The position numbers and the translations under genes were made by a program. DNA of 64,000 nucleotides from Vicinamibacterales bacterium. Its GTDB lineage: Bacteria; Acidobacteriota; Vicinamibacteria; Vicinamibacterales; CAVVIG01. The notes beneath the pieces were generated by a model that saw only the letters and a list, made by a program, of their open reading frames with translations, ran no database searches and was not told where the DNA came from. Shown piece after piece: positions 26,030 through 43,282 of the stretch. How positions within the stretch are numbered: position 1 is the stretch's first letter; each line of letters begins with the position of its first letter. Location: NCBI GenBank assembly GCA_035537875.1, contig DATLLJ010000043.1, positions 28,161 to 92,160 on the forward strand, read 5' to 3'.

Positions 26030-28193
26030 GGGAAACGGGTCGGCCGCGACCCGGCGCCTCCCGGCTGCGGCGGTCACGCTTGGCGACGACCAGGGGGCCC
26101 GGGTCCGTTTGCTCGAGGCGTTGATCAACTTGAGCGACGTGGCCGACTGCGCGCAGTACGCGCTGCAGTGGCTCCGCGATACGCTCAATCTGGCCCGATC
26201 GCTCTGCCTGCTGAAGCCGGTCAACGAGGATGCCCTCCTGACCGTGGCCGCGCAGGGCCTCCCCGGCAGTGCAGCCTCGCGCTTCACGGTTTCGCTCGAC
26301 GACTGGAGCAACCCCCTCGTCGTCGCCTTCAACAACCGCGAGACGGCGTTCTTCCGGGCTGTGAGCAACGCCGCCGATCGAAAGCGCCGACCCTCCACTC
26401 CTTTCGAGGACGCGCCGTTTCATGTCGTGCCGCTCGCCTCCAAGCAGTTCGGGGGTGAGGCGTTCGGTCTGCTCATGATCGGCAGCGTCGGCATGCTGTC
26501 GCGCGAGCTCCCTTATTTCTCGCACGTCTTCTCCCAGAAGATCGCGCAGGTTCTCCGGCAGCAGGCGCTCGTCGAAGGCGATCGCCGGCAGGGCCGCGAG
26601 CGTTCGCTCCTCTACAACATCATCAACGCGGTCACCGACCCGATCTTGTTGACCGACACCGAAGGCCGCCTGCTCATCGCCAACGCCCGCGCGCTGACGC
26701 TCTTCACGGCGTCCGAGGAAGAGAGCGAGGGGCGACGCGGAGCGGTGCGGCTGAACAACATGTTGTTGTCGTCGGCGCTGTCGAGCAAGGCGATCGAGGA
26801 AAGGGGTGCCGCGCGGCGCGAGCTGGTCCTGGTGAACCCGGTCGACGGGTCGGATCTGGTGTTCGAGCTCCTGAGCACCATCACGGAGGATGGGCGGCAG
26901 GGAAGCGGCGTGGTGTCGATTCTGCGCAACGTCACCGATTTGCGGCGCGCCAGCGAGGAAATCGAGGAGAACTACCGTCGGCTCCGGATCGCCGAGGCGC
27001 AGGCGAGGGCGGAGAGCGATCGACTGAACGTGATCATCGATTCGGTCGCCGACCCCATCGTGGTGACCGACGCGGGAGGGGCGACCTCGCTGATGAACGA
27101 TCGCGCCGAGCGTCTCTTCACGACGCCCGCCAAGGCCACGGCTCGCGAGCAGCGCTGGGTTCAAGCGAACGATGCGCATTTCTCGTCGTTCATCGCCGGC
27201 ATGCTCGTCGGCGCCGACGAGCGGCGCATCGGGGAAATCGCCTTGATCGATCCGGTCACGGGTGAAGCGCTCCCGGTCGAGGCCATCGCTGGTAAGATGC
27301 TGTCGGACCACGGCGAGCTCACGGCGGTTGTGACCATCCTGCACGATCGACGCGAGGCGATGGAGACCGCGAGGCTGTACGAGCAGTTGAAGCAAGCGTC
27401 CGACGAGCTGGAGCGACGTATTCAGGCGGCGACGTCGGACATCGCGCACCAGAACGAGCTGCTTCGCCGGCAGGCCATCGAGCTCGAGCAGGCGTCGGCG
27501 CTGAAATCGCAGTTCCTGGCCAACATGTCGCACGAGTTCAGGACACCGCTCAACGCGATGCTCGGCTATACGTCGATGCTGCTGCAGGGCGTGGGGGGCT
27601 CGCTGGAGCCGAGCGCCAAGCGCCATCTCATGCGCGTCGAGTCCAACGGCAGACATCTGCTCACAATCATCAACGAGATCCTGGACATATCCCGCATCGA
27701 AGCGGGCCGAATGCCTCTGCAACTGTCCCGTGTCGATGTGCCGGCGCTCATCGCCGAGGTGAAATCGGAGCTCGAGCCGATCATCCTGCGGTCGAAGCTT
27801 CTCGTCACGGTGGACGTCCCGGCCACGCTGCCGCCGCTCGTCTGCGACCGGCAGAAGGTGAAGCAGATTCTGCTGAATTTTCTCAGCAACGCCCTCAAGT
27901 TCACGCATCGCGGCAGCGTGGTGATCAAGGCCCGTCGCAACGTCAAAGACCGCACGCTGACGTTGTCGGTGACCGACAGCGGCATCGGCGTCGCTCCGGC
28001 CGATCACCAGAAGATCTTCGAGGACTTCCGCCAGTTGGACAACTCACCGACCCGAAAGTACGGCGGCACCGGCCTCGGGCTTTCGATTTGCCGGCGGCTG
28101 GCTCAGATGCTCGACGGACGTATTACGTTGCGCAGCGACGTGGGAAAGGGATCCACGTTCGCGCTCGTATTGCCACTGAGGGGGAGGACATGA
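25932..28193 (+). CDS. cytoplasmic sensor histidine kinase (GAF/PAS-type sensory region + HisKA + HATPase)
   Basis: H-box [15 protein letters not shown]-box [11 protein letters not shown], and G-boxes DSGIGV / GGTGLGLSI. The long N-terminal region has PAS-like repeats. Start is uncertain: the ORF overlaps the gvpA 3' end, and in-frame TTG 26109 is an alternative. Confidence 0.8.
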
Positions 28194-39866: not shown

Positions 39867-39894
39867 TTGACAGCCTTGCTTCGGTTGGTATAAT
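39867..39894 (+). promoter_or_regulatory. consensus sigma-70-type promoter upstream of cysM
   Basis: Exact TTGACA (39867-39872), a 16-nt spacer, then exact TATAAT (39889-39894). This lies about 30 nt upstream of the cysM start cluster GTGATGATG (39923). Confidence 0.55.
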
Positions 39895-39922: not shown

Positions 39923-40900
39923 GTGATGATGTCATCATCAACGTCCCAGGGGTCGGTGGCCGACTCTCGCACCAGCTCGTCTGTCCTCGACATGATCGGT
40001 CGGACGCCGCTCGTCCGGTTGCGGCGTTTCGAACGCGAGATACCGGCGGGCGTCGAGTTGTACGCGAAGGCGGAATGGCAGAATCCGGGCGGGTCGGTGA
40101 AAGACCGTGCGGCCGCCCGCATGATTCTCGAAGGCGAGTCGTCGGGCAAGTTGACCCACGATCGCACCATCCTCGATGCGACATCGGGAAACACCGGCAT
40201 CGCCTATGCGATGGTGGGGGCCGCCCGCGGCTACAAAGTGAAGCTGTGTGTGCCGGCAAACGCCAGCGCTGAACGGAAGCTGATGCTGCGTGCGCTCGGG
40301 GCCGAGCTCGTGCTCACGGACCCGCTCGAAGGAGGAACTGACGGCGCTATTCGGGAAGCGCGTCGTCTGTACGCCGAGCATCCCGATCGCTATTTCTATC
40401 CGGATCAATACAACAACGATGCGAACTGGCGTGCGCACTACGATACGACTGGTCCCGAAATCATCGAGCAGACGAGCGGCCGGCTGACTCACTTCGTGGC
40501 CGGTCTCGGGACGAGCGGGACGTTTGTCGGGACGGGCCGGCGACTGAGAAAGTTCAATCCCGCGATTCGTCTGATTTCATTTCAGCCGGATGCCGCCTTC
40601 CACGGCCTCGAAGGATTGAAGCACATGGAGTCGGCGATCGTCCCGGGGATTTACGACCCGACGCTCGCTGACGAGGACCTGAGGATCAGCACGGAGCGCG
40701 CGCACGAGATGGTCAGGCGGCTGGCGCGAGAGGAAGGGCTGCTGGCAGGGGTTTCATCGGGCGCGGCGCTGGCGGCAATGCTCGATGTCGCGTCCCGAAT
40801 CCATACGGGAGCTCCGGCGATCATCGTGACCATTTTCCCGGACGGCGCTGAGAAGTATCTGTCCGACGCGTTCTGGACGGCTGGGGACAATGGCGAATAA
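39923..40900 (+). CDS. cysM: PLP-dependent cysteine synthase (CysM type, CysO-thiocarboxylate-dependent by context)
   Basis: AEWQNPGGSVKDRAA (PLP lysine) and TSGNTGIAYA. Followed by JAMM and CysO/MoeZ genes, as in the mycobacterial mec-cysO-cysM arrangement. Confidence 0.85.
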   Translation: MMMSSSTSQGSVADSRTSSSVLDMIGRTPLVRLRRFEREIPAGVELYAKAEWQNPGGSVKDRAAARMILEGESSGKLTHDRTILDATSGNTGIAYAMVGAARGYKVKLCVPANASAERKLMLRALGAELVLTDPLEGGTDGAIREARRLYAEHPDRYFYPDQYNNDANWRAHYDTTGPEIIEQTSGRLTHFVAGLGTSGTFVGTGRRLRKFNPAIRLISFQPDAAFHGLEGLKHMESAIVPGIYDPTLADEDLRISTERAHEMVRRLAREEGLLAGVSSGAALAAMLDVASRIHTGAPAIIVTIFPDGAEKYLSDAFWTAGDNGE

Positions 40901-41354
40901 GCACCGGCTCGTCATGAGCGCAACGGTGAACGAAGCCATTCGCAGGCATGGCGAGGAGACCTACCCACATGAGTGTTGCGGTGCGCTCGTGGGGCACGCG
41001 GACCAGGTGACGATGACGGTACCGCTGCCGAATACCACTGAGGAAGGACCCCGCCGCCGATTTCTCGTGCGCCCGTCGGACTACCGTATGGCCGAAGGGC
41101 GTGCGCACGAGCTCGGCGGAGAGCTGCTGGGGTTTTATCATTCACATCCCGACCACCCCGCGCGCCCGTCGCAGTACGACTTGGACCACGCGTGGCCGAC
41201 TTTCGCGTATCCCATTGTCGCCGTGGCGGCGGGCCGCGCCGGGGAGATGACCGTCTGGTGGTTGAAAGAGGACCGGTCGAGCTTCGAAGAGGGCGAACTG
41301 CATCATGGCAACGAAGATTCTGATTCCAACACCGCTCAGGCCGTACACCGATAA
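40890..41354 (+). CDS. mec: JAMM/MPN+ metalloprotease (Mec-like)
   Basis: ECCGALVG (catalytic Glu) and HSHPDHPARPSQYD (HxHx7Sx2D). Confidence 0.8.
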   Translation: MANKHRLVMSATVNEAIRRHGEETYPHECCGALVGHADQVTMTVPLPNTTEEGPRRRFLVRPSDYRMAEGRAHELGGELLGFYHSHPDHPARPSQYDLDHAWPTFAYPIVAVAAGRAGEMTVWWLKEDRSSFEEGELHHGNEDSDSNTAQAVHR

Positions 41355-42810
41355 GAAGGACGCCGTCGAAGCCGACGGCGGCACCATCGGCGAGCTGCTC
41401 GCCGATCTCACGCGCAGACACAGCGGTCTGAAGGCGCATCTGTACAACGATCAAGGAAAGCTCCGCAGTTTCGTGAACGTGTATGTGAATGACGAGGACA
41501 TTCGGTACCTGCAGAAGGAACAGACCCCTGTCTCGTCGTCGGACACCGTCAGCATCATCCCGTCCGTCGCTGGTGGCGCAGACGCCGCCGACAAGGGCCC
41601 TCGCACCGTGTCGACTTCAGCCGTCGCCGAACAAGGGGCGCTTCCGCGCACCGGACGCGAGCTTCCGGCGCTGACGAACGACGAGATCAAACGCTACAGC
41701 CGTCACCTGATCATGCCGGAGGTCGGGATGGATGGGCAGCGGCGGTTGAAGGCGGGGAGCGTGCTGTGCGTCGGCGCGGGCGGCCTCGGTTCACCGGCGG
41801 CGATGTATCTAGCGGCGGCCGGGGTCGGCACCATCGGCGTGGTTGACTTCGATGTCGTCGACTTCAGCAATCTGCAGCGGCAGATCATCCATGGAACGTC
41901 AGACGTCGGCCGCTCGAAGCTCGCGTCGGCGAGGGACCGCATCAACGCCATCAATCCCCACGTCGACGTTCAGACCTACGAGGTGATGCTGACGTCGGAA
42001 AACGCGCTGAAGCTGTTCGAGCCGTACGACGTGATCCTCGACGGGACCGACAATTTTCCTACCCGGTACTTGACCAACGACGCCTGCGTGCTGCTTGGCA
42101 AGCCGAACGCGTACGGCAGCATCTTCAGGTTCGAGGGGCAGGCCTCGGTCTTTGCCACGAAAGAGGGCCCCTGCTATCGGTGTCTGTATCCCGAACCGCC
42201 CCCGCCCGGACTGGTGCCCAGTTGCGCCGAGGGCGGAGTGCTCGGTGTTCTGCCGGGCATCGTCGGCGTGATCCAGGCAACGGAGGCGATTAAGCTCATC
42301 ACCGGCATCGGCGAGCCGTTGATTGGCCGCTTCCTGATTTACGACGCCCTGCGCATGAAGTTCAGGGAACTGAAGCTCAGGAAGGATCCGGACTGCCCGG
42401 TGTGCGGCCTCCACCCAACGGTCACGAAGCTGATCGATTACGAGCAGTTCTGCGGAATTCACCCCCCGGCGAACGAGCCGGCAGCCACGAGCGGCACGGA
42501 AATCACCTCGGTTGAGCTGAAGCAGCGGCTCGATCGGGGAGATGACCTGTTCCTCCTCGACGTGCGCGAACCGCACGAGTATCAGATCAACCGAATCGAG
42601 GGTTCGACGTTGATTCCGCTGGGGGAAGTGCCGAGACGGTACGCCGAGCTCGACCCGGACGACCAGATGGTCGTGTATTGCAAGGTGGGCGCGCGGAGCG
42701 CCAGAGCGGCTGATTACCTGCGGACGGTCGGTTTCAAGAAGGTCTTGAACCTGAAAGGCGGCATTCTCGACTGGATCGACAAAGTTGACCCGACGCAGCC
42801 TAAATACTAA
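41305..42810 (+). CDS. CysO-like ubiquitin-fold sulfur carrier fused in-frame to MoeZ-type adenylyltransferase/sulfurtransferase (E1-like + rhodanese)
   Basis: aa 1-91, ILIPTPLRPYT...FVNVYVNDEDIRY...TVSIIPSVAGG, resemble M. tuberculosis CysO, which ends in AGG. No stop follows GGT GGC (41572-41577). After about a 35-aa spacer come YSRHLIMPEVG, GAGGLGSPAAMYLAAAGVG, DGTDNFPTRYL, PSCAEGGVLG and a C-terminal rhodanese with YCKVGARS. Confidence 0.85.
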   Translation: MATKILIPTPLRPYTDKKDAVEADGGTIGELLADLTRRHSGLKAHLYNDQGKLRSFVNVYVNDEDIRYLQKEQTPVSSSDTVSIIPSVAGGADAADKGPRTVSTSAVAEQGALPRTGRELPALTNDEIKRYSRHLIMPEVGMDGQRRLKAGSVLCVGAGGLGSPAAMYLAAAGVGTIGVVDFDVVDFSNLQRQIIHGTSDVGRSKLASARDRINAINPHVDVQTYEVMLTSENALKLFEPYDVILDGTDNFPTRYLTNDACVLLGKPNAYGSIFRFEGQASVFATKEGPCYRCLYPEPPPPGLVPSCAEGGVLGVLPGIVGVIQATEAIKLITGIGEPLIGRFLIYDALRMKFRELKLRKDPDCPVCGLHPTVTKLIDYEQFCGIHPPANEPAATSGTEITSVELKQRLDRGDDLFLLDVREPHEYQINRIEGSTLIPLGEVPRRYAELDPDDQMVVYCKVGARSARAADYLRTVGFKKVLNLKGGILDWIDKVDPTQPKY

Positions 42811-42832
42811 AATACGACTGAATGGGTCGTAG

Positions 42833-43282
42833 ATGCTAAGGCTTTCAAAAAAGGCCGATTACGCGCTGATGGCGATGAAGCACCTCGCCTTGCGGGGCGA
42901 TAGCGGATCGTCCAACGCCCGCGAAATCGCGGAGCAGTACGACATCCCCATCGAGTTGATGGCCAAGGTGCTGCAGCGACTGGCGCGCCGCGGCCTGCTG
43001 CGATCGCACCAGGGGACGCGGGGCGGTTATCAGTTGGGCCGGGGGCCGGCACAGATCTCCGTGGCCGACGTCATTCAGGCAATCGACGGACCGGTCGCCG
43101 TGACCGCCTGCGCGGCCGAGGAAAGACAGTGCGAGCAGTTTTCGAAGTGCAACGTGCGTGATCCGCTGTTCAAGGTGCGCGATCGGATTCTCGCGGTGCT
43201 GGCGGAGTGCACCATCGCCGAGCTCGCCGCCGAGCCGCCGAGTCCGGCCTCGCGGGCCGCGGTGCTCCATACACACATTTGA
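42833..43282 (+). CDS. iscR: Rrf2-family Fe-S cluster regulator
   Basis: MLRLSKKADYALMAM, a winged helix, and Cys ligand region CAAEERQCEQFSKC. Confidence 0.85.
   Translation: MLRLSKKADYALMAMKHLALRGDSGSSNAREIAEQYDIPIELMAKVLQRLARRGLLRSHQGTRGGYQLGRGPAQISVADVIQAIDGPVAVTACAAEERQCEQFSKCNVRDPLFKVRDRILAVLAECTIAELAAEPPSPASRAAVLHTHI

Follow-up and report, generated by a model that had tools for sequence, protein, structure and literature searches.

The protein-thiocarboxylate route to cysteine of Mycobacterium tuberculosis employs the sulfur carrier CysO, the synthase CysM, the JAMM protease Mec+, and MoeZR, an E1 enzyme with a C-terminal rhodanese domain (summarized in PMC3227635). CysO, a free-standing protein of 93 aa, terminates in its Gly-Gly (GG) motif, MoeZR serves both CysO and MoaD, and Mec+ is required only for the release of cysteine from CysO. 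Other carriers are capped, as they are made with residues beyond the GG and need a JAMM protease, namely QbsE with QbsD in thioquinolobactin synthesis and PtmS2 with PtmS1 (PMC6006322). In these systems the post-GG residues, only one or two in number and later lost, block activation until the clustered JAMM protease exposes the GG.

Ubiquitin-fold carriers also occur joined via GG to a partner enzyme, as in natural Ubl-MoaE proteins and in an engineered SAMP1-MoaE fusion, a linear protein that HvJAMM1 cleaves in vivo only when the GG is present, thereby restoring activity (PMC4443979). Iyer et al. 2006 (PMC1779556), who described operon types 4c and 4d, proposed JAB cleavage of fused ThiS/MoaD and reported that the thiamine operons of delta/epsilon-proteobacteria and Firmicutes encode Ubl-ThiF fusions, in which an N-terminal beta-grasp domain is carried by a ThiF/MoeB-type E1 and with which no JAMM enzyme has been described.

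Here we analyze a window of 64,000 nucleotides (positions 28,161 to 92,160 of the forward strand of contig DATLLJ010000043.1) from a soil acidobacterium of the Vicinamibacterales, the genome of which is 98.96% complete. Its plus strand encodes, in order, cysM, a JAMM gene, and an ORF in which cysO is fused to moeZ (cysO::moeZ). All four functions of the M. tuberculosis pathway are represented, the carrier by a CysO-like domain, the synthase by a CysM-type enzyme, Mec+ by a JAMM protease, and MoeZR by an E1 that ends in a rhodanese domain, and the cluster is likely to be the form that this protein-thiocarboxylate route takes in Vicinamibacterales. Unlike in M. tuberculosis, moeZ lies in the same operon and is fused to the carrier, and a maturation cut would be required, because 410 residues, the linker and the E1, follow the GG.

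Organization of the locus

The three genes are tightly packed (Table 1), with an 11-nt overlap between cysM and the JAMM gene and a 50-nt overlap, in different frames, between the JAMM gene and the fusion ORF. The order cysM-JAMM-cysO(-)moeZ is kept in nearly all of about 110 loci. The gene for the Rrf2-family regulator downstream has its own promoter-like site at 42785-42813.

Table 1 Features of the cysM-JAMM-cysO::moeZ locus, in positions of the window.
Feature	Position	Strand	Basis or remark
Predicted sigma-70-type promoter-like site	39867..39894	+	TTGACA-16-TATAAT, 12/12 consensus match only; ahead of cysM
cysM-type PLP cysteine synthase, 325 aa	39923..40900	+	Pfam PALP 236 bits
JAMM/MPN+ metalloprotease, Mec-like, 154 aa	40890..41354	+	Pfam Prok-JAB 85.2 bits, cut-off 25
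cysO::moeZ fusion ORF, 501 aa, 54.5 kDa	41305..42810	+	Open reading frame, domain matches
CysO-like beta-grasp sulfur-carrier domain, aa 1-91	41305..41577	+	Pfam ThiS; ends Ala-Gly-Gly
Gly90-Gly91 codons GGT GGC	41572..41577	+	Proposed scissile bond Gly91-Ala92
Linker, aa 92-120, 29 residues, ADAADKGPRTVSTSAVAEQGALPRTGREL	41578..41664	+	Unconserved, predicted disordered
ThiF/MoeB-type adenylating (E1) domain, aa 131-366	41695..42402	+	Pfam ThiF 283.9 bits
Rhodanese domain, aa 404-492	42514..42780	+	Pfam Rhodanese 72.1 bits
Rrf2-family (IscR/SufR-like) regulator heading downstream isc genes	42833..43282	+	Context only

The JAMM protein carries HSHPDHPARPSQYD together with an upstream Glu in an ECCG motif, in agreement with the E...HxHx7Sx2D metal site of the JAMM proteases that act on sulfur carriers (Mec+, QbsD, HcyD, HvJAMM1), and in the PDB it matches 2kcq_A best (E 8e-25). 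The CysM-type protein matches PDB cysteine synthases, among which M. tuberculosis CysM (3dwg_A, E 3e-57) is not the top match, and it scores 349.1 bits with the TIGR01138 cysM model, under the cut-off of 394.2; it is the presumed client of the carrier thiocarboxylate.

Anatomy of the fusion protein

An earlier note on this DNA, made from the sequence alone, had read the ORF as a CysO-type carrier fused in frame to MoeZ, with a JAMM gene and cysM upstream, and each of these assignments is borne out by the searches reported here. The GG codons are followed directly by GCA GAC GCC with no stop codon. The best PDB hits for residues 1-91, each an end-to-end alignment, are CysO from Amycolatopsis (A. 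orientalis; 4n6e_B, E 1.2e-20) and CysO from M. tuberculosis (3dwg_C, E 1.6e-19). Both of these chains terminate at the GG equivalent to residues 90-91 of the fusion. The Pfam ThiS model matches aa 5-91 (E 5.5e-14, 52.9 bits, cut-off 22.5), and the domain, if released, would have a calculated mass of 9,957 Da. Carriers of the ThiS/MoaD/CysO family (PF02597) have a GG at the chain terminus; here the motif occupies aa 90-91 of 501, and the fused carrier would come to end in GG only after proteolysis.

The remainder of the protein is comprised of an adenylating domain (Pfam ThiF at aa 131-366, E 1e-84) and a rhodanese domain (aa 404-492, E 5.8e-20). Matches to the NCBIfam models for MoeZ and MoeB start at aa 121-123, run to aa 501, and reach about 550 bits, but the MoeZ model NF005902 (550.6 bits, equivalog cut-off 647) and the MoeB model NF005646 (555.8 bits, cut-off 633) both stay under threshold, and of these models NF006444 alone exceeds its own cut-off (477.4 vs 449). 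Because the equivalog cut-off is not reached, we name this part MoeZ-type rather than an equivalog. The E1 domain contains a GAGGLGSP motif as its GxGxxG loop, the CxxC zinc-motif pairs C290/C293 and C364/C367, and the loop residue Cys307, while the rhodanese active-site Cys459 lies in YCKVGARS (codon 42679-42681). Foldseek superposes the E1 domain on MoeB (1jw9_B, TM 0.96, rmsd 1.4), and the best structural match is Uba4 (6yub_A, 7e-37), which likewise consists of an E1 and a rhodanese.

The AF2 model (overall pLDDT 85.8) consists of three folded domains. The carrier is predicted with pLDDT 88-96 across aa 1-80 and with a confident strand-helix fold for aa 1-86, whereas pLDDT falls below 50 for residues 89-112, such that predicted disorder starts at residue 89, immediately before the GG.

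A bacterial Ubl-conjugation defense system (CBASS Cap2/Cap3 or Bil-type) was considered for this protein and rejected, as Pfam finds no E2 domain; PADLOC E1-E2 models give only partial matches over about 100 Rossmann-fold residues, at 57.6 bits or less, versus about 550 bits to MoeZ/MoeB.

Conservation and distribution of the fused and split states

The comparison covered 113 non-redundant related loci, of which 82 are in the fused state and 31 in the split state. Fused loci occur in Acidobacteriota, Gemmatimonadota, Armatimonadota, Eisenbacteria, and Bacteroidota, and within Acidobacteriota the fusion is found in about 51 of 301 sampled genomes. A search of a representative library with aa 1-200 returned matches covering CysO and E1 in a single stretch from many clusters (formed at 50% identity), the most distant at about 41% identity, many of these matches being gene fragments. 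In an alignment of 54 fused proteins, the catalytic elements of the E1 and rhodanese domains (GAGGLGSP, C290/C293, C364/C367, C307, and C459) are invariant.

All 31 split carriers extend past the GG, by 1-25 residues. The split relatives are thus exactly of the QbsE/PtmS2 type, and trimming after the GG would be needed in both states. The hallmarks of a capped precursor are therefore found together in this family: 410 residues after the GG in the fusion, an adjacent JAMM gene, and short caps in all split orthologues. In some split loci, all that separates them from the fused state is a stop codon in frame with an ATG after it (as in GGNGDR*MALSNDEV). The two states alternate many times among relatives, although a number of the split MAG loci may owe their state to frameshifts in assembly (e.g. 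L022 and L044), which would inflate the count of transitions.

Proposed maturation and alternative explanations

We favor, with good confidence, the reading that the fusion is a polyprotein cut after Gly91 by the JAMM enzyme. This was proposed in the earlier note, and every comparative test that we ran supports it. Domain anatomy, conservation patterns, and distribution are what the analysis shows; cleavage, the bond that is cut, the identity of the protease, and the catalytic activities are inferred. In the proposed mechanism, ribosomes would make the sulfur carrier as the N-terminal 91 residues of a polyprotein, the remainder of which is the carrier's own activating enzyme, and the JAMM metalloprotease encoded upstream would hydrolyze the putative scissile bond, Gly91-Ala92 by analogy with known systems, in the disordered linker. 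The products would be a CysO of about 10 kDa, the Gly-Gly carboxylate of which is free, and a MoeZ of 44.6 kDa. Gly91 would then be adenylated by MoeZ, the persulfide of rhodanese Cys459 would turn the adenylate into a thiocarboxylate, and CysM would transfer the thiocarboxylate sulfur onto activated serine, after which the JAMM enzyme would hydrolyze the CysO-cysteine adduct, like Mec+ in M. tuberculosis.

The fusion may have originated when loss of a stop codon or a frameshift extended a post-GG cap into moeZ. Such an extension would have been tolerated because the carriers of this operon family always carry post-GG residues that the JAMM enzyme must remove, and this tolerance would explain the alternation of fused and split states.

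The needs of the rest of the genome point in the same direction. The fusion is the only PF00899 (ThiF-family E1) match over the cut-off in this nearly complete genome, which also encodes ThiS (before thiG) and MoaD (after moaE), both ending exactly at GG. Since the fusion holds the only E1, free E1 would be needed for these carriers as well; it probably serves several carriers, like MoeZR, and MoeZ freed from the polyprotein would also supply ThiS and MoaD. A further extension of the polyprotein reading is speculative and rather improbable, that the fusion is a zymogen-like gate with a 1:1 stoichiometry of carrier to E1. The uncleaved carrier may dock in cis with its tail through the adenylation site, holding the only E1 of the cell inactive, so that the JAMM enzyme may license all thiocarboxylate-dependent sulfur traffic at once, that is, to cysteine, molybdopterin, and thiamine.

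The alternative that fares best holds that the fusion is never cleaved and that the CysO-like domain, permanently tethered, serves MoeZ in regulation or as a scaffold, while a separate, free carrier feeds CysM. The distinct Ubl domains fused to some ThiF proteins may act in this way, and the genome does encode a second CysO-like protein of 95 aa that ends in GG (G000:C141). Such a paralogue is, however, found in only 7-8 of 41 relatives, in fused and split genomes alike, such that the fused domain is usually the only CysO of its genome. It is also, in contrast to the domain of Ubl-ThiF proteins, a bona fide CysO, closest to true CysO carriers, and Ala89, Gly90, and Gly91 are invariant across the alignment of 54 fused proteins. 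The ratio of CysO to MoeZ identity is 0.93 in fused lineages and 0.94 in split lineages, and on this measure the carrier domain is equally constrained in both. A toggle by a single stop codon is hard to square with two different functions, and we regard an uncleaved module as unlikely.

The polyprotein might instead be cut after the GG by another cellular protease, or process itself, without the neighboring JAMM enzyme. Three fused genomes do lack an adjacent JAMM gene, but each of them encodes a JAMM orthologue elsewhere (53-64% identity). In nearly all other loci, the JAMM gene is a direct neighbor, and its catalytic motif, HxHx7Sx2D, is kept in 108 of 108 adjacent genes checked. Adjacency in itself is weak and nonspecific evidence for precursor processing, because Mec+-type cysteine release already requires a JAMM enzyme. 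JAMM enzymes are, though, known GG-specific processors of sulfur carriers, and neither Pfam nor the AF2 model reveals a protease-like or intein-like element in the fusion. Cleavage by a different agent is therefore distinctly improbable, and the JAMM-cleaved polyprotein remains the preferred reading.

Equally doubtful is the idea that free MoeZ arises mainly from internal initiation in the linker, at the GTG of VSTS, with the full-length fusion serving only as a carrier precursor. An in-frame GTG is present at aa 102, and split relatives begin MoeZ near that position, often with a Shine-Dalgarno site. The internal start suggested in the earlier note nevertheless does not hold up, as no Shine-Dalgarno-like site precedes this GTG, the linkers of 34 of 81 fused genes lack any in-frame ATG, GTG, or TTG, and a Shine-Dalgarno-like site combined with a start codon occurs in only nine of the 81. 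Nothing in the linker is conserved: across the 82 fused relatives it is A/P/T/V/E-rich, ranges from 6 to 38 aa, and has no conserved column, and its DNA is unalignable even inside the genus. Internal initiation could in any case not release the carrier.

The genome is a MAG in 173 contigs, and an error in sequencing or assembly might have removed a stop codon after the GG; the earlier note had advised a survey of orthologs. Such an artifact has a negligible chance of being the explanation, because all 120 of the best database homologues (81-94% identity, from independent metagenomes and projects) share the ThiS, ThiF, and Rhodanese architecture, and the fused loci counted above span several phyla with junctions that differ in sequence and length.

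Relation to known systems

The proposed polyprotein shares its logic with several described systems while differing from each in its partner. QbsE and PtmS2 likewise depend on a clustered JAMM protease, but the caps they lose are a residue or two, whereas the "cap" here is a 44.6-kDa enzyme, the carrier's own activator. SAMP1-MoaE is likewise a carrier joined via GG to an enzyme, but there the carrier is linked to MoaE, which accepts the sulfur, and the fusion examined had been engineered, whereas the present fusion is natural and its partner is an E1. Ubl-ThiF proteins share the present order of an N-terminal beta-grasp domain on a ThiF/MoeB-type E1. In eukaryotes, polyubiquitin and ubiquitin-ribosomal protein fusions are cut after GG by deubiquitinases. 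These precursors resemble the fusion described here in being linear ubiquitin-fold fusions with a GG-specific peptidase and a functional downstream partner; they differ in serving conjugation rather than sulfur transfer, and in that the partner here is an E1.

The layout is real and common in databases, and the principle, put forward in 2006, has been shown for SAMP1-MoaE. A literature search found no paper on this particular cysO::moeZ fusion and no experiment on any member of the fusion family. What is gained is thus a variant that would be easy to test, rather than a new principle. If cleavage is confirmed, this would be a natural bacterial case of a ubiquitin-fold protein that is made as one chain with its own E1 and then freed by a JAMM enzyme, a close parallel, within sulfur metabolism, to the processing of eukaryotic ubiquitin precursors. 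The role of Mec-type JAMM enzymes would then extend from product release to precursor maturation, and these abundant soil bacteria would have, in the protease, a point of control over their only E1. Because every unfused carrier examined is capped, the comparison suggests that, outside Actinobacteria, carriers as a rule mature through a JAMM enzyme, and this universal capping would explain how easily the fusion arises and reverts.

Variation at the junction

One database protein, P0033 (639 aa), is a triple fusion of JAMM, CysO, and MoeZ, an architecture absent among the roughly 110 loci examined. It is encoded on one contig only, and at the junction a single base sets it apart from the window, so P0033 may be the result of an indel error.

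The residue that follows the GG is small (A/S/V/T/G) in 77 of 81 fused genes vs 15 of 31 split genes, a difference with a naive Fisher p of 8e-8 that is not significant in a lineage-paired test (median p 0.125). This bias is suggestive only, and could reflect a constraint on the new N-terminus of MoeZ, through either an N-degron or the P1' position.

A carrier joined in frame to its activating enzyme

The earlier note proposed that a CysO-type carrier is fused to MoeZ with no stop after its diglycine, downstream of cysM and then a JAMM protease gene. Both the fusion and this gene order are borne out by ORFs and domain matches. The GGT GGC codons at 41572-41577 are followed directly by GCA GAC GCC, and from residue 121-123 to its end the fusion scores ~550 bits against the NCBIfam MoeZ and MoeB models. 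Along their whole length, residues 1-91 align with the CysO structures from Amycolatopsis orientalis (4n6e_B, E 1.2e-20) and M. tuberculosis (3dwg_C, E 1.6e-19), with the GG of residues 90-91 matching the last residues of both chains. An AlphaFold2 model of the fusion (54-sequence alignment; mean pLDDT 85.8, pTM 0.79) contains three confident domains; its E1 part superposes on MoeB (1jw9_B) with a TM of 0.96, and Uba4 is the best structural match for the whole chain. The pLDDT falls below 50 at residues 89-112, suggesting that the GG would begin a disordered, accessible stretch.

Features of the cysO::moeZ locus and other carriers of the genome
Feature	Location	Strand	Remarks
Promoter-like TTGACA-16-TATAAT	39867-39894		perfect match
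CysM-type cysteine synthase	39923..40900
Prok-JAB/JAMM protein	40890..41354		with HSHPDHPARPSQYD
cysO::moeZ fusion ORF	41305..42810	+	501 codons, uninterrupted
ThiS domain	residues 5-91 of fusion		Pfam
ThiF domain	residues 131-366 of fusion		Pfam
Rhodanese domain	residues 404-492 of fusion		Pfam
Promoter-like TTGACC-17-TAAAAT	42785-42813		weaker, 10/12; overlaps last moeZ codons, 20 nt upstream of Rrf2 regulator gene
MoaD	after moaE		ends at GG
ThiS	before thiG		ends at GG
CysO-like 95-aa ThiS-family paralogue	G000:C141:53268-53555 (L129:1435-1722)		outside window; ends at SGG

The pathway encoded here is the CysO/CysM/Mec+/MoeZR route of M. tuberculosis. The cysM and JAMM genes overlap by 11 nt, and the JAMM and cysO::moeZ ORFs by 50 nt (window 41305-41354) in different frames; the JAMM domain finishes ~25 residues ahead of its ORF's stop codon. 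Given the weaker promoter-like site, the isc genes, headed by the Rrf2 regulator, may have their own promoter. A defence-type Ubl-conjugation system was excluded: an E2 domain is absent, and PADLOC returned only partial Rossmann-fold matches.

In this 98.96%-complete genome, only the fusion carries a ThiF-family domain over the Pfam cut-off, and three other ThiS/MoaD-type proteins all have GG as their final residues. This requires the E1 to act in trans on these other carriers, as has been shown for mycobacterial MoeZR (PMC3227635). One of them, the CysO-like paralogue, immediately precedes a 370-aa BNR/Sortilin-Vps10-repeat protein. This paralogue, with its BNR-repeat partner, is limited to 7-8 of 41 relatives, some fused and some split, so that the fused domain is the only CysO-like carrier in most fused genomes.

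Distribution of fused and split loci

The fusion is real and widespread. A survey of orthologues, suggested in the earlier note, recovered the same ThiS+ThiF+Rhodanese architecture in 120 of the 120 best homologues in a large protein collection (81-94% identity, many projects). Junctions were also collected from two sets, 39 same-family or same-order relatives and the 80 best loci found by scanning one genome per species; after removal of duplicates and broken copies, 113 non-redundant cysO/moeZ loci remained, 82 fused and 31 split. Together, these counts exclude an assembly artefact. Fused genes are found within Vicinamibacteria, Bryobacterales, Blastocatellia, Terriglobia and Thermoanaerobaculia, and also in Gemmatimonadota, Armatimonadota, Eisenbacteria and Bacteroidota; of 301 evenly sampled Acidobacteriota genomes, ~51 match residues 1-501 without a break.

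Parsimony on a tree built from the MoeZ part needs 14 switches between fused and split, of which well-supported branches force at least 8. Some may be assembly frameshifts, but clean changes exist in which an in-frame stop is directly followed by ATG (GGNGDR*MALSNDEV, GGMY*MANVEL).

Carrier processing

All 31 split carriers run on past GG, by 1-25 residues. The carrier is thus always capped in this operon family, and trimming after GG is required whether or not the genes are fused. Just such trimming of a capped carrier has been described for QbsE/QbsD and PtmS2/PtmS1 (PMC6006322). Linkers of fused genes span 6-38 residues (median 13) and are rich in Ala, Pro, Thr, Val and Glu; they contain no conserved column, and their DNA is unalignable even within the genus. 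Across 54 fused proteins, Ala89, Gly90 and Gly91 are invariant. CysO identity divided by MoeZ identity gives 0.93 for fused lineages and 0.94 for split ones, and by this sequence measure the carrier domain is equally constrained in both states.

The best-supported reading, and the main interpretation of the earlier note, is that the fusion is a polyprotein cleaved by the JAMM protein, with Gly91-Ala92 as the proposed bond; the comparative evidence makes this likely, although we infer the cleavage, its site and the protease. The HxHx7Sx2D motif is intact in all 108 adjacent JAMM genes, and the three fused genomes that lack such a neighbour all encode an orthologue elsewhere. The Mec+ role would already account for adjacency as such. 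Cleavage would yield a 9,957-Da carrier and a 44.6-kDa MoeZ (computed masses), which would adenylate and then thiocarboxylate the released carrier; CysM would take up the carrier's sulfur, and the JAMM protein, like Mec+, would also free cysteine from the carrier. The evolution of the fusion was probably permissive rather than adaptive: because the cap would always be removed, a lost stop extending it into moeZ would cost little, and the states flip repeatedly.

That the fused domain is instead permanently tethered and no longer a carrier is unlikely, being contradicted by the invariant GG, the equal constraint in fused and split lineages, the scarcity of alternative carriers and the single-codon toggling between states. 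Slightly less probable still is free MoeZ from an internal GTG start, an idea of the earlier note that did not hold up: no Shine-Dalgarno-like site precedes this GTG, 34 of 81 fused genes lack any in-frame linker start codon, and only 9 of 81 combine a linker start with such a site, whereas most split moeZ genes have their own. Cleavage by a protease other than JAMM is without support and equally improbable.

The pathway and the principle of JAB cleavage are already known or proposed. Iyer et al. 2006 (PMC1779556) listed the operon type of ThiS/MoaD, E1-rhodanese, JAB and cysteine synthase for Acidobacteria, with the fusion unmentioned, and suggested that JAB enzymes cut ThiS/MoaD from fusion partners, freeing the carboxyl terminus; HvJAMM1 cleaves linear SAMP1-MoaE in vivo in a GG-dependent manner (Cao et al. 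2015, PMC4443979). Our literature search found no paper on a cysO::moeZ fusion. The difference here lies in the partner, which is the carrier's own E1 and also the cell's only one.

Variant loci

The linker of locus L017 (G012:C11) is interrupted by one in-frame TGA (GGSRS*SGASEQVVTSMSS...), beyond which MoeZ continues without a change of frame; this one-codon difference between split and fused could reflect a genuine stop, read-through or an error. In some split relatives (L109, L030), short tandem repeats, e.g. TTTAGATTCTAGATTTTAGATTCTAGATTC, fill the cysO-moeZ spacer, and such insertion may be one way in which a fusion is broken. The database protein P0033 (639 aa, single ENA contig) joins JAMM, CysO, MoeZ and rhodanese in one frame (junction EEGELH|MATRIL), with one base fewer than the window where JAMM and cysO overlap; it could be a genuine self-processing triple fusion or else the product of an indel error, and none of the ~110 loci examined has this arrangement. 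Four public MAG loci titled Bifidobacteriaceae, Cyanobacteriota, Heliobacteriaceae and Clostridia (L054, L058, L100, L105) carry a Vicinamibacteria- or Blastocatellia-like cysM-JAMM-cysO::moeZ at 60-74% identity to the window protein; they are placed among Acidobacteriota on the tree, and their labels or binning are probably wrong.
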